Shown here: piece by piece, positions 8,628 through 17,470 of the stretch
Position numbering within the stretch: the first letter of the stretch is position 1
How the letters are laid out: each line of letters starts with the position of its first letter
Source: an uncultured Latescibacterota bacterium
Lineage (GTDB): Bacteria; Latescibacterota; UBA2968
Direction of reading: 5' to 3'
Length of the DNA: 64,000 nt
NCBI GenBank assembly: GCA_958295785.1
Contig: OY282377.1
Span: 3,328,385 to 3,392,384, forward strand
Translations under genes and position numbers: made by a program
The notes under the pieces: model-generated
Seen by the model: only the letters and a program-made list of their open reading frames with translations
What the model was told of the DNA's origin: nothing
The model's database searches: none

Positions 8628-9893
8628 ATGCTGACGCAACGCGAACTGGGGCAGCGGTTGAAGCGTGCGCGCGAGGCAATCGGGTTGACCCAACAGCAGG
8701 TTGCCGATAGCGTCGCGCTTACCCGCGTTGCAATTTCCCAAATCGAATCGGGACGACGGGCGGTCAGTTCATTTGAACTCCTGCATCTCTCGCGTCTTTA
8801 CGGGCGAGATATGGTCAGTTTTTTTGACGAAAATGCCCACATGCAGGAGGCGGAAAACGCACTGACTGTCCTGTTTCGCACGCATCCCGAACTGGTTCAA
8901 ACCCCTGCGTGCAGAGAAGCATTGCAACGGGCCGATGAGATATTCCGAGAATATCTCAATTTGAAAGCCCTTTTGGATTTGGATACAGAACAGAACCTGC
9001 CGCCTGTATATGCTTGTCCCGAACCGAGAAATGTTTGGGAAGCCATTCATAAGGGCGAGCGCGTCGCCGAGGCGGAACGCAGTCGTCTGGCGTTGGGGCA
9101 TGATCCCATCCGCGATATGACCGAGTTGGTGGAATCGCAGGGCATACCCATCATTGAAATCAATTTGGATGATCAGATATCTGGTCTCTTTATCGCCCAT
9201 ACAGAAACGCAGTTGTGCATCTTCGTCAACCGAGAACAACTCGGTAGGGCAAGGGCGCGAGTCGCATTTACTATCGCCCATGAATACGGTCACATCTTGC
9301 TTGACCGGGATAAAGTCAGTGCCATCAGCAGAATCTCAAACGAGCGCGATTTGTTTGAAGTGCGTGCGAATGCTTTTGCCGCCGCGTTTCTCATGCCGGA
9401 AGAAGGGGTGAGTCAATTTCTCAAAACCATCGGCAAAGGCGCGTCCAGCCGCGAAAAGCTGTTGGCCTATACCGTGCCCGACCTGCTCGTGGGGCATCAC
9501 CGCCGCTTGGCATCCACCCAAGTCCTCACGCTTTACGATGTCGTCAAGTTCTGCGCGTATTTTGGAACCAGCTTTGAAGCCGCCCTGTACAGATTGAGAA
9601 ACACAAAGTTTCTTTCCGAGGGATCATTTGATCAACTCTACGAACAAAAAGAAAAAGCGAGGAAAATTGGACAACATCTCAAAATAGAAGAAGGAAGGCG
9701 AGACCACCCCAGCAGTTTCGCGGTCAATTTCACGGGGCTGGCTATCGAAGCCTATCGGCGCGACAAAATCACGTACGACAAATTGGTCAATCTCGCAGCA
9801 CAAGTGAAATTTGATTCTGAGGTCATAGACGAAGTACTCTCCTGCATGGGACTGGAAAACAATCGCGAAGAAGCGATCTATCTTCCGGAGTGA
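8628..9893 (+). CDS. XRE-family HTH fused to an ImmA/IrrE-family (DUF955) metallopeptidase domain
   Basis: N-terminus LTQRELGQRLKRAREAIGLTQQQVADSVALTRVAISQIESGRR (HTH_XRE). HEYGHILLD supplies the HExxH motif, and ANAFAAAFLMPEEGV matches ImmA/IrrE. Confidence 0.7.
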   Translation: MLTQRELGQRLKRAREAIGLTQQQVADSVALTRVAISQIESGRRAVSSFELLHLSRLYGRDMVSFFDENAHMQEAENALTVLFRTHPELVQTPACREALQRADEIFREYLNLKALLDLDTEQNLPPVYACPEPRNVWEAIHKGERVAEAERSRLALGHDPIRDMTELVESQGIPIIEINLDDQISGLFIAHTETQLCIFVNREQLGRARARVAFTIAHEYGHILLDRDKVSAISRISNERDLFEVRANAFAAAFLMPEEGVSQFLKTIGKGASSREKLLAYTVPDLLVGHHRRLASTQVLTLYDVVKFCAYFGTSFEAALYRLRNTKFLSEGSFDQLYEQKEKARKIGQHLKIEEGRRDHPSSFAVNFTGLAIEAYRRDKITYDKLVNLAAQVKFDSEVIDEVLSCMGLENNREEAIYLPE

Positions 9894-10513: not shown

Positions 10514-10593
10514 TTCGCCAAACCCATATCCGGGCGCATCGCGGTCAAGGTGATCAACCACTTGGGCGACGAGGTGATGAAAGTGTTTCGGGT
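10514..10593 (+). repeat. direct repeat copy 2 of the mod 3' terminus (80 bp, 1 mismatch vs 7984-8063)
   Basis: ttcgccaaaccca[t]atccgggcgcatcgcggtcaaggtgatcaaccacttgggcgacgaggtgatgaaagtgtttcgggt matches the mod C-terminal coding sequence. Confidence 0.9.
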
Positions 10594-10611
10594 GTAAAGG
10601 AGTGGTAATTT

Positions 10612-13600
10612 ATGAATTTTCCAGACCAAAGCCATATTGACCGAGTCCGTGAAGCACTCTGGCAACGTTCAAGCGATGCGTCCGTCATGGTTGGGAGCGG
10701 TTTCAGCCGAAACGCCTTGAAATCCCGACCAGATGCAGACGACCCTCCAACATGGCGCGAAGTGACAAAAGCGGTATCCGATAAACTGTATTCCCAAGAC
10801 GACGGTAGCGATGTGATTTTGAGATCCTCGGCAACGGGCGACTTTTTGCAGTTGGCCCAAGAGTATGAGGCCGCGTTCGGACGCGGGGACCTGCATCTCT
10901 TTATCCAAAGGTTGATTCGGGACGACGATTTCAAGCCAGGTGATCTACATACGCGGTTGCTACGGCTTCCTTGGCGCGATGTCTTCACAACCAATTGGGA
11001 CACGCTTTTGGAACGGGCGTGTTCTTTTGTAGCTGATCGCGCCTACAGCGTTGTGAGAAACATGGATGAGATTTCGTTGGCTGATCAGCCTCGCATTATC
11101 AAACTGCACGGATCGCTTCCCGCACATTTCCCGCTGATTTTCACGGAAGAAGATTATCGAACTTATCCAAGGAAATTTGCTCCGTTCGTGAACACCGTTC
11201 AGCAAGCAATGATGGAAACAGTATTTTGTCTGATCGGCTTCTCGAGTGATGATCCAAATTTTTTGCAATGGTCGGGATGGGTTCGTGACAATCTGGGTGA
11301 ATCCGCCCCGAAGATATATTTGGCCGGATGGCTGGATTTGTCACCTCACAGGCGCAGGATGCTTGAAGACCGCAACATGGTTTCTATTGATCTTGCGCGT
11401 CATCCGCATGCGAACAAATGGCCGGAACACAAGCGACATCAATACGCAACCAATTGGATTTTGCATTCATTGGAACGTGGACGCCCATACGAAGTCACAG
11501 AGTGGCCTTCTCGATCAGAGCGGCAACTTCTACCAATACCGAAAGAACTTCAACCTGTTAAAGAAGTTGTTCCTGATGAACCAAGAGAGGAGATAGATGC
11601 GCCAGCGTGGCCTGGAAATGATTCGGGAAATTTATTAGAAAAGGTGAAGGAATGCCTCAAGATTTGGACGCATAACAGGAAAATCTATCCGGGTTGGTTA
11701 GCTACCCCCGCAAGTGCGCGACATTCCATGAGTTGGGACACCGAACAATGGGAATCACCGATTTTAAGCGTGCTTCCCAACTTTGCTCCAGTAGAACGCT
11801 TGAAAGCCATTCGGGAGTTGATGTGGCGCAGGGAAATCATGCTGGATCCGATCTCTAACGAACTTGAAACCGCCGCCCAAAAAATCTTGGAAGAGATAGA
11901 CTGCCAAGCTCGAACAATTGGGGGTGTTGCCGATACAAGCGTTAATTGGGCGGACATGCGGGAAACTTGGCGTACTGTCGCGCTCGTGCTCGTGACAGCA
12001 ACGAGATTTGAATTTGATGAAGACCTGTTTGAGGAACGGATTGCGGCACTGTCCCCTTTCCGTGACGATCATCCAGACATCGTTCAACGGATACATCACG
12101 AGCGTTGTCTATGGGCGGTTTATGCGCTCAATTTCGAGAAGTTGGAAGGCTTACTCAAGGATTGGAAAACTGAAAATTGTGATCCAGTCTGGATGATGAG
12201 AAAAGCCGCTATCCTTTTCGAAATAAATCAAAATGACGACGCAATTCAACTGATCAACCACGCGCTTTCGGCTATCCGTGAGAATCTTGGCGATAAACGT
12301 AGCTTAGCCGGTCCTTCCCGCGAGGGTTGGGCACTGTGGTTGGCACTGGCATTTGAAGAAGGATGGGGGGAACCAAATAAAAACCTTATTGACGCACCTC
12401 CAGCTTTCAGAAGATGGCAGGAGTTGGCATCGCTGAAATGTGATGCCTTCACAGAGAAACACTGGTACGCCGAAGCAATCAAAGGCAGTGAAGAAAAAAA
12501 AGAAAAACTGCCCTTCGACCTTGGTCAGGGGCAAGGGTATCACTTTCACCTATCCAATGCCGAATATGATCGATATATTGCAGCTTATCGTGCAATTCGT
12601 CTCTCTGAAGTAGCCGGGTTACCTCCATCTACTAGCAGTTTTGTCGTAGCTTCGGATATATTGAAACTTGCCGCCGATAGGCTAGCCATGACGAATCCAG
12701 AGATGACCGCACGTCTGATCCTTCGAGTTTTGAACTATGACGGGGACTCTATGCTCACGCATGTTCTTTCGCGTCCTCGGGTGGCCGCTATGCCAGTGGA
12801 CTCGGTGGAAAGGCTTATTCAGGTCTGTAACAATGCCATTGAATACGCGCTCCCTTGGATATCGGGTGGACGCAGGCATGCCATGTTCTGGATTGAACGA
12901 TTTCGCGTTGTCTTGGAAGTACTATCTCGGCTTGTTCTCCGATCTGATCCCGAAACGGCAGAAACTATTTTTGATAAAGCACTTGAATATTACCGAAATG
13001 ATCACATAGCTCAGTGCCGGCTTTTAGAAGGACCTGTCCAACATATTCTGAAACGTTCTTGGGAAACCTTACCTAAAGATCGCCAGACTGACCGCGTGCT
13101 CGATCTGTTGAATGCGCCTATTGTTGGTATAGACGGATTTACTGGATCTGAAGGCTACCCAGATCCCGGGAAATTGCTATATCACAGAAATCCTCTGCCC
13201 ATTCGCACGTCGGACAACGAGAACCACTGGCAAGAAATCATCAGTCTGAATGTGCGTGGTTTGAACGCTGGTGGGGAAGCGCGCAAACGAGCATCTGTCA
13301 GAATAGCCCAAATAGCCTCGAAAGGACGGCTGTCGGATGATGAGGAATCGCAAGTCGCTCAAGCACTTTGGAGCCAAGATCATACCAACCCCAATGATCT
13401 ACCGGGTGGAACTAATATCTATGAGTGGGTATTTCTTCTATTACCACAGCCGAAGCCAGGCCTTGCAGAAGAGCGTTTTCGTCGCAAATGGCTCAATACT
13501 GACAACCTCTCTCAAGGCGATGGGGCCGATTTGGATGAAATTCTCTCGCAAGTTGGTTCTGCGATTTCCGGACTAAAAGCTCACCAGCATCAGCTAACGC

Positions 13601-14415
13601 TTTCGGATAAAGAGAAGAACTATCTTGCAGACCTTGTCGGGCGGTGGGCAGAATGTCGACCGTTGCCAAAAATAGGGCACTTTCCAGATAATGAGCGCAT
13701 TCGTCTTGAGAATCGGGCCATTGATGGCCTGCTATTTATCCTATTGGCAGTGTCGATTCCAGAAACCACAGCTACAAAACTCTACAAAAAAGTTCAAGAC
13801 CTAAAAGAATCTGACACGCCAGGGCTGAGGCTTATCGCCAGCATTGTTAAGGCATTGCCCGATCAGGTTGATGAAATCGCTTTGTTTGTAAGAATGGAAT
13901 TGACATCTGATAATAAAGGCTGGGCCGGGAATGCTACACGGGGATTAAATTTTTGGTTAGAGGCTGCGTCCGATTCAACGCTCGGCATACAGCCTCCACC
14001 TGATGACTTGGTTCATGAAATTGGCATCGTAATCGCTACCCGTAGAAAAGTAGTTCTCAAACAGGCATTGGAGATAGCAAAATGGGTATTTGAGGAAGGA
14101 AGTGAGGAACAGAGAGAAGTCATTAGCCAGTTGACGATACAGGGGCTGGGTTATCTGATTGAGGAATTGCGATACGACAGAGAGCACGATCAGGATAATG
14201 ACTTTGATGTGCCGTTTTTGCGCTGGGTCTGCACACATCTTGCCTTAGCAATGGCGGAGCATGGCTTGGCCGACGACCCGACTGTTGCTCGCTGGCTGGA
14301 GATTGCCAAAGAAGACCCGCTCCCGGAAGTGCGGCAGGCAAAGCATTCCGCTTTTGCTCGTCAGCATAAGGAGAAGGAAAGCACGGGCGAAGAGCCAATG
14401 TCTCAAGCCGAGTAA
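10612..14415 (+). CDS. SIR2-like (SIR2_2/DSR-type) NADase-domain protein with ~950-aa alpha-helical C-terminal region; defence-associated sirtuin-like
   Basis: RBS AAAGGAG. N-terminal motifs VMVGSGFSRN, FTTNWDTLLE, IIKLHGS, LIGFSSDDPNF match the SIR2_2 family. Size and architecture resemble DSR1/DSR2. Confidence 0.65.
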   Translation: MNFPDQSHIDRVREALWQRSSDASVMVGSGFSRNALKSRPDADDPPTWREVTKAVSDKLYSQDDGSDVILRSSATGDFLQLAQEYEAAFGRGDLHLFIQRLIRDDDFKPGDLHTRLLRLPWRDVFTTNWDTLLERACSFVADRAYSVVRNMDEISLADQPRIIKLHGSLPAHFPLIFTEEDYRTYPRKFAPFVNTVQQAMMETVFCLIGFSSDDPNFLQWSGWVRDNLGESAPKIYLAGWLDLSPHRRRMLEDRNMVSIDLARHPHANKWPEHKRHQYATNWILHSLERGRPYEVTEWPSRSERQLLPIPKELQPVKEVVPDEPREEIDAPAWPGNDSGNLLEKVKECLKIWTHNRKIYPGWLATPASARHSMSWDTEQWESPILSVLPNFAPVERLKAIRELMWRREIMLDPISNELETAAQKILEEIDCQARTIGGVADTSVNWADMRETWRTVALVLVTATRFEFDEDLFEERIAALSPFRDDHPDIVQRIHHERCLWAVYALNFEKLEGLLKDWKTENCDPVWMMRKAAILFEINQNDDAIQLINHALSAIRENLGDKRSLAGPSREGWALWLALAFEEGWGEPNKNLIDAPPAFRRWQELASLKCDAFTEKHWYAEAIKGSEEKKEKLPFDLGQGQGYHFHLSNAEYDRYIAAYRAIRLSEVAGLPPSTSSFVVASDILKLAADRLAMTNPEMTARLILRVLNYDGDSMLTHVLSRPRVAAMPVDSVERLIQVCNNAIEYALPWISGGRRHAMFWIERFRVVLEVLSRLVLRSDPETAETIFDKALEYYRNDHIAQCRLLEGPVQHILKRSWETLPKDRQTDRVLDLLNAPIVGIDGFTGSEGYPDPGKLLYHRNPLPIRTSDNENHWQEIISLNVRGLNAGGEARKRASVRIAQIASKGRLSDDEESQVAQALWSQDHTNPNDLPGGTNIYEWVFLLLPQPKPGLAEERFRRKWLNTDNLSQGDGADLDEILSQVGSAISGLKAHQHQLTLSDKEKNYLADLVGRWAECRPLPKIGHFPDNERIRLENRAIDGLLFILLAVSIPETTATKLYKKVQDLKESDTPGLRLIASIVKALPDQVDEIALFVRMELTSDNKGWAGNATRGLNFWLEAASDSTLGIQPPPDDLVHEIGIVIATRRKVVLKQALEIAKWVFEEGSEEQREVISQLTIQGLGYLIEELRYDREHDQDNDFDVPFLRWVCTHLALAMAEHGLADDPTVARWLEIAKEDPLPEVRQAKHSAFARQHKEKESTGEEPMSQAE

Positions 14416-14501: not shown

Positions 14502-14792
14502 ATGATCATTCGTTCTGTTCGACACAGGGGATTGCGCCAGCTGATAGAACACGACAATCCCCAATTCCTGCAACGCGACTTGGTTGACCGAGTACGCAAG
14601 ATATTGACGGCACTGATCTTGGCTGAGGATTTGGACAGTTTTATCGCCGATGCCCCTCAAGGCTGGCGCGTCCACCGTCTCTCAGGTAACCGTCAAGACG
14701 CCTGGAGCATTTCGATATCTGGCAATTGGCGGATCACGTTTGAAGAAGATACGGGCTATATTGACCGCTTAAACTTGGAGGATTACCACTGA
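14502..14792 (+). CDS. higB: HigB-type RelE/ParE-family toxin
   Basis: MIIRSVRHRGLRQLIEHDN ... GNRQDAWSISISGNWRITFEEDTGYIDRLNLEDYH matches the HigB killer-protein family. Toxin sits upstream of antitoxin, as expected. Confidence 0.7.
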   Translation: MIIRSVRHRGLRQLIEHDNPQFLQRDLVDRVRKILTALILAEDLDSFIADAPQGWRVHRLSGNRQDAWSISISGNWRITFEEDTGYIDRLNLEDYH

Positions 14793-15097
14793 TGGCAACC
14801 GATGGCCTCACAGTGACCATGACCCCTTCGCATCCGGGCGACTTCATTCGCACAGAGGTCATTGAGGAGTTGGGGGTAAGTGTGACGCGGGCAGCCGAGA
14901 TTCTGGGGGTTCGTCAAGCGACGCTTTCGGAGGTGCTAAACGGCCATGCCGCGCTATCGCCGGAAATGGCCCTACGCATCGAAAAGGCATTTGATATCAG
15001 CATGGATATGCTACTGCGAATGCAGGCTTGGTATGACGCCTCGCAAATGCGCGCCCGGGCAAATGAGATCGAGGTTCAACGGTACGCGTCCGCTTGA
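14792..15097 (+). CDS. higA: HigA antitoxin (XRE HTH)
   Basis: PSHPGDFIRTEVIEELGVSVTRAAEILGVRQATLSEVLNGHAALSPEMALRIEKAF matches HigA. Its start overlaps the higB stop (TGATG). Confidence 0.7.
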   Translation: MATDGLTVTMTPSHPGDFIRTEVIEELGVSVTRAAEILGVRQATLSEVLNGHAALSPEMALRIEKAFDISMDMLLRMQAWYDASQMRARANEIEVQRYASA

Positions 15098-15398: not shown

Positions 15399-16488
15399 AG
15401 GACTTACGCAATTTTCATTGGAATATGAGGTGCTTTGAGTTGTTGTCTCAAGAAGTCAGCCACCCCCCGGTATTTGACTTGATAAATGGTTTGTCCTGTT
15501 TGATAGGCCACCTGCGCGAGTCTTATCCAAACGAACATCGCACACCCAATATGATTTCGTACCATGCGTGCCAACCGACATTGACACTTTTCAAGCCCGG
15601 TTACCTGTTTGACTTCGCGGTGAAATTGCTCAATTTTCCATCTTTGGTGACACACCTGTTGTACCCCTGAAGAATCGTTTTGAGCATGGTCGTTCGTTAC
15701 GACATACGCCGTGCGTCTGGCAGCAGACGCCACCCGGAATAATTTCACTTTGTGGTCTTTGGGGAACCCTCTGATTTTAATTAGCTTGCCTTGTTTGCGC
15801 TCCGCTTGAGTCCAAGTTAAGCTATCTACGCGCTGGTAGGGGGTTGTGCCTGCCGAATCGTCCACGCGCCGGTTCGTCTTGAGGGGACAATAATAGGTTT
15901 TTTGCATCTGCTCTATGTGTAGCATGACTGTTTTGGTCGCATACCAACTGTCCATCAAGACCCCGGTAAAAGGGAGGCCCTTCTGATAGACCAACCCAGA
16001 GAGCATGTCCTTGAGATGATCCCATTTGGTTTTGCCATCGCCTTGCGGGTCATAAATCCGATAGTCAATCAGCCAGAACCGATCCTGTTGCGGATGGACA
16101 TAGACACATGTGACCACCCCAATGCCGTTGATGACGCCTTGGGCGTTGCCGCTCTATTGACGGCGCACTCACGCGATCTTGCGTGCGTGTCGCTTGTCTA
16201 AAACCGTGTCATCAAAGATCACATAGCCTTTGGGCGTCAACGCGATGTGGTCTTTGACGTGTTCCCACACCAAGCGGGGAGGGATACGATCACCGGCGAG
16301 ATAGCGGTTGATCATATCATGACTGAACCCTTCGCTATGGTCGGCGAAATGGGTCAGGGTATAGTTGAGGGGACTGCTAAGCAGATACTGACAGTAATCC
16401 AAACGCGTCGGGTGGCGCATTGACACCTCCTCAAAGTGATAAATTTTACGGAATTGCACCCTTTGTTAACTCAGCATGCGTAAGTCCT
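15399..16488 (-). mobile_element. IS701-like (IS4/IS5 superfamily) insertion sequence, ~1090 bp, 12-bp terminal inverted repeats, 7-bp TSD AAAACAT
   Basis: Left inverted repeat (IRL) aggacttacgca at 15399-15410 and right inverted repeat (IRR) tgcgtaagtcct at 16477-16488. AAAACAT at 15392-15398 and 16489-16495. The element encloses a DDE transposase. Confidence 0.65.
15404..16459 (-). pseudogene. IS701-family DDE transposase with two in-frame stops (TGA 16169-16171, TAG 16154-16156)
   Basis: N-terminal part ..IFDDTVLDKRHARKIA* and C-terminal part ..DSWYA..QRWKIEQFHREVK (R-x3-E-x6-K signature) share one frame. The stops fall where the IS701 consensus GVxRQYSGTxGK has Gly (TGA) and Tyr (TAG). 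Confidence 0.65.
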
Positions 16489-16556: not shown

Positions 16557-16594
16557 AAGGGTGCTTATGTGTAATTGAGCACCCTTCTTTTTTT
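16557..16594 (+). terminator. rho-independent terminator-like hairpin + T7 run
   Basis: aagggtgcttatgtgtaattgagcaccctt followed by cttttttt. Confidence 0.45.
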
Positions 16595-16656
16595 GAGGAG
16601 AATGTGGCATGGACATAACAGCGGTCTATCTCGATGGTGGATACAAGGAGACGCCA

Positions 16657-17013
16657 ATGTCTAAAATTGACTTTTACACCTGGAACAGATGAAGCACCTG
16701 TCGCAAGGTGAAAGCGTGGCTTTCACGAGAAGGGGTGGATGTGGTGGAAAGGGATTTTTTTGTGGATGGCTTTACAGACGCAGAACTTCGGGCGTTGCTC
16801 GGAGACCTGCCGCCGGATGACGTATTCTCGTGGCGGAGTCCGTCTGCGCGTGCGCTGAGGCGCGACCGAGATGCGGTGTCGGCAGACGAACTGATCCGTC
16901 TGATGGTGGCACAGCCTCGGCTGATCCGCCGGCCCTTGATCCGCGCAGGCGGGCGCCTGTTTGTGGGCACGGACAAGGCGGCGATGGCAGAGGCATTTCC
17001 CGGATTGGCGTGA
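16657..17013 (+). CDS. ArsC/Spx/YffB-family thioredoxin-fold protein with in-frame TGA at the first position of the CxxC-equivalent motif; candidate selenoprotein or nonsense pseudogene
   Basis: RBS AAGGAG 6 nt before ATG. Translation MSKIDFYTWNR-[TGA 16690-16692]-STCRKVKAWLSREGVDVVERDFFVDGFTDAELRALL...LIRRPLIRAGGRLFVG matches the family over ~118 aa. In Spx the same position reads SPSCTSCRK. A perfect 8-bp hairpin gtgaaagc-gtg-gctttcac starts 15 nt after the TGA. Confidence 0.5.
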
Positions 17014-17043: not shown

Positions 17044-17470
17044 ATGAATTTCAACACCACCACATTTCGCCAATTGATGGGCAATGGCCTGAGTGATCGC
17101 GTGCCCCAGTTCCAACGCGATTATTCATGGGGCACGGACGAATGGGACGACCTGTGGCAGGACATGGTCGGGCTGTTTGGCGAAGACCCGGACCCGCGCA
17201 TTACATGGGCTACTCGGTGTTGCAATCGCCCGACAACCGAGCGTTCGACATTCTCGACGCGAGGCGTTCACCTATTTGGCAACAGCGGACAATCGCACGT
17301 TGGGAAAGACCGGCTTCTCAGAAAAGCGTCCTGTTTATCAAAAAAGCCAATTCGCCATCACTCGCAAATCAGCAGAAAACTGCGACACTTGGACGACCGA
17401 CAAAATTCGTTCACATCAGAACTGGATGGGCGAACGGGCATCTGGCGCGTCAATTTCTGAACCGACCTCA
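17044..17470 (+). pseudogene. DUF262 (GmrSD/ParB-like nuclease N-terminal domain) gene remnant, frameshifted and truncated
   Basis: NFNTTTFRQLMGNGLSDRVPQFQRDYSWGTDEWDDLWQDM matches the DUF262 N-terminal motif. The continuation (..ILDARRSPIWQQRT ~ DGQQRLT) appears only in other frames. Overlapping 3-frame ORFs signal decay. Confidence 0.5.

Follow-up and report, generated by a model that had tools for sequence, protein, structure and literature searches.

We propose that the open reading frame at positions 16657-17013 (plus strand) of the window, by which we mean the whole 64,000-nucleotide stretch of DNA analysed here, is an intact gene of the ArsC/Spx/YffB superfamily whose predicted thioredoxin-fold product has selenocysteine (Sec) where the CxxC redox motif would have its first Cys (U12-S-T-C15). 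Judged from the sequence and its relatives, we put the probability of this reading at roughly 0.88. The fold by itself is unremarkable, and the decisive evidence is comparative. A preliminary description of this DNA had put the gene forward as a candidate selenoprotein, and that overall claim is now supported by the conservation of the TGA, by coding constraint on both sides of it, by the Shine-Dalgarno sequence and start codon, and by a covarying hairpin. The features concerned, with the evidence for each, are as follows.

16645..16650, plus strand: Shine-Dalgarno sequence AAGGAG, 6 nt 5′ of ATG 16657 (sequence)
16657..17013, plus strand: predicted selenoprotein coding sequence (translation, PF03960, Spx match, coding potential, 60 homologous loci)
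16690..16692, plus strand: in-frame UGA, the predicted Sec codon (residue 12), which opens the U-x-x-C motif (TGA in homologues, Spx alignment)
16699..16701, plus strand: TGT encoding Cys15, the resolving cysteine of U-x-x-C (invariance, Spx alignment)
16708..16726, plus strand: predicted bSECIS hairpin inside the coding sequence (folding, pairing conservation, covariation, synonymous suppression, published constraints)
16695..16737, plus strand: putative and uncertain lower-stem extension, 16695-16699 pairing with 16733-16737 (minimum free energy fold of the window)

The frame reads MSKIDFYTWNR-TGA(16690-16692)-STCRKVKAWLS... and contains 118 codons counting the internal TGA; a second TGA (17011-17013) terminates it, and the product is 117 residues long (M1...R11-U12-S13-T14-C15...A117). 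With a codon-usage model trained on the long open reading frames of the window, the coding potential is 0.20 and 0.19 on the two flanks of TGA 16690, compared with a training mean of 0.18, and this TGA ranks first among all TGA sites in the window for two-sided coding potential. When the window was screened for a second selenoprotein, both by motif plus hairpin and by codon usage, 16690 emerged as the sole convincing site. We note that the TGA codons at 9891 (plus strand) and 58457 (minus strand) are also flanked by good coding potential in the same frame (421 + 120 and 173 + 100 codons, respectively). No redox motif lies at either TGA, and these are most likely neighbouring genes that share a frame by chance, or a disrupted gene.

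A protein search over 5.8 billion sequences returned 233 relatives. The best 120 of these 233 are all 89-103 aa long, cover 73-85% of the query and are truncated at the N-terminus, beginning at assorted Met or Val codons 3′ of the TGA, which is the signature expected of gene callers that halt at a Sec codon. A second search, over 1.84 billion cluster representatives, returned 363 relatives at E ≤ 1e-3, among which N-truncated entries (the Sec forms) are mixed with full-length CxxC forms; in the latter, a Cys aligns with the Sec position. One entry (P0125, 179 aa) is translated straight through, with a Trp where Sec is predicted (FWNRWSSCRK); it is presumably the product of a gene call under genetic code 4 or 25.

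That the gene models among the best 120 of the 233 relatives begin 3′ of the TGA, and that GTG 16708 opens a 101-aa reading frame, would also be expected if the true start lay downstream, at GTG 16708 or later, so that the 11 upstream codons were a leader peptide or noncoding and the hairpin a translational regulator. The starts chosen by gene callers vary between homologues, which means that there is no single conserved downstream start. Furthermore, a product begun there would be deprived of strand β1 and of the entire CxxC active site (Spx residues 2-13), the upstream F-Y-T-W-x-R segment is conserved as protein and in frame with the remainder, and full-length Cys homologues run uninterrupted across the region. 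We therefore consider a downstream start very improbable.

The codon itself was followed through a genome scan with one genome per GTDB species, which yielded 60 loci and, with the window, 61 sequences. All 60 are from metagenome-assembled genomes (MAGs) labelled Candidatus Latescibacterota, Dehalococcoidia, SAR202 or Chloroflexota. TGA occupies the homologous codon in 58 of the 60 loci (59 of 61 sequences counting the window), and in these 58 the frame is open from a start 8-13 codons 5′ of the TGA and is interrupted by one stop only, at the identical position. The two remaining loci (L053 and L060), which are the most divergent of the set, have TGC (Cys) there. Whether orthologues carry Cys or TGA at this codon had been posed as a question in the preliminary description, and the answer is thus TGA nearly throughout. 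A GGAG- or GGAGG-type Shine-Dalgarno sequence lies 5-9 nt 5′ of the start codon in 57 of the 59 TGA-containing loci, so the good ribosome-binding site and ATG reported earlier for the window are not only present (AAGGAG at 16645-16650, ATG at 16657) but kept among its relatives. On the 5′ side of the TGA, F/Y-Y-T-W-x-R is retained while its codons vary synonymously (four for Thr, namely, ACA, ACC, ACT, and ACG, and six for Arg). On the 3′ side, Cys15 (encoded by TGT or TGC) is invariant in 57 of 57 distinct sequences. The comparison of homologues thus indicates purifying selection at the amino acid level on both sides of the TGA. Lastly, 20 of the 59 Sec-type genes, the window gene among them, terminate with TGA, from which it follows that UGA is not globally reassigned.

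Downstream of the TGA, the preliminary description had pointed out an 8-bp stem with a GUG loop at 16708-16726, beginning 15 nt past the UGA, and this element is present at those coordinates. Positions 16708-16715 (GTGAAAGC) pair perfectly with 16719-16726 (GCTTTCAC) over 8 bp, and the apical loop GUG (GTG in the DNA) occupies 16716-16718. The fold of a 76-nt segment is not striking when taken alone (z = −1.15). Of the 1107 TGA triplets that the window contains, however, only 7 (0.6%) are followed, at a distance of 8-25 nt, by a perfect 8-bp hairpin. Conservation of the hairpin could be assessed in a gapless alignment of the 60 nt from the TGA in 59 Sec-type sequences. Among the 55 distinct sequences, 97.7% of the cells of the 8-bp helix are paired. 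Three helix pairs show compensatory changes (UA>CG, AU>GC, and CG>AU/GC), one further pair switches between A-U and G-U, and RNAalifold returns exactly the 8-bp helix. The helix is also retained in a subclade in which the peptide encoded by this segment is A-R-E-L/F-L-S instead of V-K-A-W/S-L-S.

Because the hairpin is embedded in the codons for V-K-A-W-L-S, its constraint is also visible in synonymous variation. Within the hairpin, Val is encoded by GTG in 49 of 49 cases, Ala by GCG in 48 of 48, and Leu by CTT or CTC only, whereas four to five codons are used for these amino acids elsewhere in the gene; the mean synonymous-codon entropy is 0.56 in the hairpin versus 1.16 outside it. The Cys-form loci L053 and L060 contain no comparable hairpin. 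The check on hairpin conservation that had been called for earlier therefore comes out in favour of the element in all of these respects: pairing, covariation, suppressed synonymous variation, and absence from the Cys forms. We do not claim the lower-stem extension of the hairpin, as pairing in the equivalent helix reaches only 68% among homologues and RNAalifold does not return it.

Published constraints on bSECIS elements (PMC13188914, Figure 2 legend) ask for an apical loop of 3-9 nt (3 nt here), an upper stem of 4-16 bp (8 bp), a G within the first two positions of the loop (GUG, that is, G then U), a UGA-to-loop spacing of 16-37 nt (23 nt), and a minimum free energy of ≤ −7.5 kcal/mol (−8.6 kcal/mol for the minimal hairpin, 16708-16726). 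Every one of them is satisfied by the hairpin, which bears out the earlier remark that its spacing and loop G are bSECIS-like. As in the bSECISearch model and the Escherichia coli fdhF type, the stem-loop lies directly 3′ of the UGA within the reading frame and has a small loop beginning with G-U, with a spacing of 23 nt in the present case. A scan of the whole window against Rfam at gathering thresholds gave no match, and a permissive scan of 16640-16800 gave chance-level matches only (flpD, for instance, reached 12 bits where its gathering threshold is 40, E = 5.7).

An ordinary CxxC ArsC-like gene in which TGC or TGT had mutated to TGA would be a pseudogene, and the preliminary description had named this nonsense mutation as its alternative. 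Cys forms of the family do occur, and an insertion sequence (IS) and a truncated GmrSD gene lie nearby, so that, with mobile and decayed DNA adjacent, local decay is conceivable. Yet the copy of the gene in a sibling strain (contig L061, 97.6-99% identical to the window) differs by merely two substitutions, both synonymous. Since 58 of 60 species-level genomes, from two phyla, share the TGA, we can exclude a nonsense mutation private to this genome. The purifying selection 5′ and 3′ of the TGA, the retention of the Shine-Dalgarno sequence and start codon, and a hairpin that is co-conserved with the TGA and missing in Cys forms only all speak against decay as well, and we give a pseudogene a vanishingly small chance. 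The gene is intact amid a fluid neighbourhood.

That neighbourhood differs between the two strains by two insertions in the window. A 1.09-kb IS at 15400-16488, missing from L061, ends 169 bp 5′ of the selenoprotein ATG and has minus-strand reading frames at 15404-16117 (DDE_Tnp_1, E = 2e-9) and 16169-16459; the flanking matches overlap by ∼10 bp, which suggests that the insertion made a target-site duplication. Immediately 5′ of the IS are a HigB-like toxin gene (14502-14792) and an HTH_3 antitoxin gene (14792-15097), which overlap by 1 nt. A 3.8-kb segment at 10573-14385 is likewise missing from L061. The segment codes for a protein of 1267 aa (10612-14415) whose N-terminus carries a SIR2_2 domain (PF13289, E = 2.5e-18) and which is probably the product of a strain-variable defence gene. 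On the 3′ side, 17044-17460 holds a GmrSD/DUF262 restriction-endonuclease remnant, whose first ∼40 residues match PF03235 before the frame is broken (it continues in other frames at 17093 and 17127); L061 has the same 98-aa truncated form. Upstream in L061 are genes for an N6_N4 methyltransferase, TIR/AbiTii, and HTH + Peptidase_M78. Taken together, the flanks resemble a defence island (methyltransferase, TIR/AbiTii, HigBA, GmrSD remnant), which has no bearing on the selenoprotein assignment. Within the segment shared with L061, a terminator-like hairpin of 11 pairs followed by a T-run (16557-16586, plus strand) lies 70 nt 5′ of the ATG and suggests that the gene is transcribed alone and not with the HigBA pair.

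Across the loci there is no conserved operon partner. The neighbours in Dehalococcoidia are unrelated, and the sole recurrent neighbour in Latescibacterota is a convergent GFO/IDH/MocA oxidoreductase gene. In a rough, unbootstrapped neighbor-joining tree of ∼115 residues from loci L001-L060 and the window, 16 Latescibacterota sequences and the window form one clade nested within Dehalococcoidia/Chloroflexota. Identity across phyla is 73-76%, as high as that within a phylum, and the SECIS is nearly identical. The nested clade, the high identity across phyla, and the near-identical SECIS suggest that the gene and its SECIS spread horizontally together, a transfer that may have run from Dehalococcoidia to Latescibacterota sharing marine hosts. 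Several of the MAGs appear to be sponge-derived, judging by the names of their records alone.

The protein matches PF03960 (ArsC) at 61.9 bits over residues 7-111 when Cys is substituted at the TGA, against a cut-off of 24. Its best PDB match is Spx (6ghb, E = 6e-12); next come a "arsenate reductase" from Brucella (2kok) and YffB (1rw1), and the assignment to the ArsC/Spx/YffB family made in the preliminary description holds on both counts, with the redox motif aligned. In the HMMER alignment, U12 lies opposite Cys10 and C15 opposite Cys13 of Bacillus subtilis Spx (CTSC motif). The earlier proposal that the UGA stands for the redox Cys of U-x-x-C agrees with this alignment and with the TGC in L053 and L060. 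The scores against the nearest NCBIfam models are as follows.

TIGR01617 (Spx/MgsR), the best NCBIfam model: 68.6 bits, below its cut-off of 75.05
NF008107 (YffB-type): 41.1 bits, below its cut-off of 121
TIGR00014 (ArsC proper, glutaredoxin arsenate reductase): 30.9 bits, below its cut-off of 106.05
NF041106 (ArsC family (seleno)protein, ArsC_rel_Se_1): 28.2 bits, below its cut-off of 85

Since all scores lie under the cut-offs, the protein is a member of the ArsC superfamily that falls outside every curated subfamily. With Spx/MgsR (TIGR01617; 6ghb, 1z3e), it has in common the N-terminal CxxC redox switch, here with Sec for the first Cys, and an RRP motif. It differs from Spx in lacking the C-terminal extension of ∼15 residues (approximately Spx residues 115-131; 117 versus 131 aa), so that it ends near Spx residue 117, and in having a Pro opposite Spx Gly52. 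In Spx, Gly52 is required for the contact with the α-CTD. YffB-type proteins (1rw1; NF008107) are of similar length (114-119 aa), share the ArsC fold, and have no C-terminal extension, as in the window protein, but the match to 1rw1 reaches just E = 9e-8. Members of NF041106 resemble the window protein in belonging to the ArsC superfamily, in carrying UxxC near the N-terminus, and in length (∼107-118 aa). With ArsC (TIGR00014) and "Arsenate reductase 1 (UxxS)", the window protein shares PF03960 and the Sec or Cys at the equivalent N-terminal catalytic position, although its motif is UxxC and its sequence is much nearer to the Spx and YffB types than to ArsC proper.

Selenoproteins of this superfamily have a published record, as had been stated in the preliminary description. 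In 2005, an "Arsenate reductase" selenoprotein with UxxS was reported from the Sargasso Sea (PMC1088965), and "Arsenate reductase 2 (UxxC)", with 42 sequences assigned to cd03032 (ArsC_Spx), followed in 2008 from the GOS data (PMC2398784, Zhang and Gladyshev). Most "Arsenate reductase 2" reads in GOS Dataset S1 are of the DWYY-x-R-x-G-U-T-x-C type (PMC2398784), and this majority subtype, used as a positive control, scores 116 bits with NF041106. Three reads (JCVI_READ_1318105, 1121231, and 1095390070075) are of a minor subtype, YYTWNKUSTCKK...ERD-F...RSPS...EPRLIRRPL (PMC2398784), which shares with the window gene the motifs YTW-x-[KR]-U-S-T-C-[KR]-K, ERDFF, RSPS, and EPRLIRRPL. JCVI_READ_1318105 and the window protein share 42% identity (E = 1e-30), and their NCBIfam score profiles are the same. 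The subtype is therefore already on record as a selenoprotein, though never split from the majority type and without a curated model. The signature of the clade can be written W-x-[RK]-[UC]-[ST]-x-C-[RK]-K...ERDFF...FSW[RK]SPS...EPRLIRRP. The GOS sequences are anonymous reads from the surface ocean, whereas the window gene, like its 58 relatives, belongs to an assembled genome of Latescibacterota or Dehalococcoidia, and all of these are at most 42% identical to the GOS reads.

Our literature search, which also covered SAR202 and sponge symbionts, returned nothing specific on Sec use in Latescibacterota and, for Dehalococcoidia, the ranking in BSepDB alone. BSepDB places two Dehalococcoidia MAGs in the top ten of bacteria by selenoprotein richness, at 46 and 49 genes (PMC13326102), and one of them bears a UUID-style isolate label like that of the genomes that carry the homologues. 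ARAGORN found no tRNA, and hence no tRNA-Sec, in the window or the 60 loci, which sample a tiny part of each genome. When SelA, SelB, and SelD of E. coli were compared by tblastn with the same sequences (∼508 kb, a negligible share of each genome), there was no match. UGA 16690 could in principle be read through without Sec, for example, by a near-cognate Trp or Cys tRNA with stimulation from the hairpin, in a genome lacking Sec machinery; the W that P0125 carries at the Sec position would fit such decoding, as would the negative outcome of the sel-gene, tRNA-Sec and literature searches above. Against this, the hairpin agrees with the SelB-type bSECIS consensus on every point, and the UGA falls on the catalytic Cys of a redox motif, a kind of position at which Sec and Cys exchange as a rule (PMC1088965). 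The same subtype was classed as a selenoprotein in the GOS study (PMC2398784), and related Dehalococcoidia MAGs are very rich in selenoproteins (PMC13326102). Trp in a CxxC active site would, moreover, destroy redox function, yet the motif is strongly selected. We judge readthrough without Sec to be improbable, if less so than a downstream start, and retain Sec insertion as the preferred reading.

Under Sec insertion, translation would initiate at ATG 16657, and as the ribosome reached UGA 16690 the hairpin at 16708-16726 would recruit SelB-GTP-Sec-tRNA(Sec), so that Sec would be inserted at this codon in place of termination. The mature protein would then be expected to alternate between a selenol/thiol and a selenenylsulfide state, its proposed activity being that of a thiol(selenol)-disulfide reductase or an oxyanion reductase. 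Judging solely by what is known of the family, the function is most likely that of a selenol/thiol-disulfide, possibly oxyanion, reductase working through a U-x-x-C selenenylsulfide cycle. The nearest characterised relatives are Spx-type redox-switch regulators and not arsenate reductases, which makes it possible that the protein is not an enzyme but a redox sensor based on selenium, with another protein, e.g., RNA polymerase, as its binding partner. We regard the sensor as unlikely. If true, it would be the first selenoprotein transcriptional regulator.

The scientific novelty of the gene is limited, given that UxxS and UxxC selenoproteins of the ArsC family have been catalogued since 2005 and 2008. 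The value of the finding for annotation is more immediate. The closest database proteins (the best 120 of 233) are truncated at the N-terminus and so lack the active site, and because no NCBIfam model recognises the clade, automated pipelines keep mis-calling the gene, and dozens of genomes from Latescibacterota and Dehalococcoidia are affected. Beyond annotation, the gene offers a clean case of an RNA structure constraining synonymous sites within a coding sequence. Finally, we found no published record of Sec use by the source Latescibacterota lineage, and the gene marks this lineage as a probable user of Sec.
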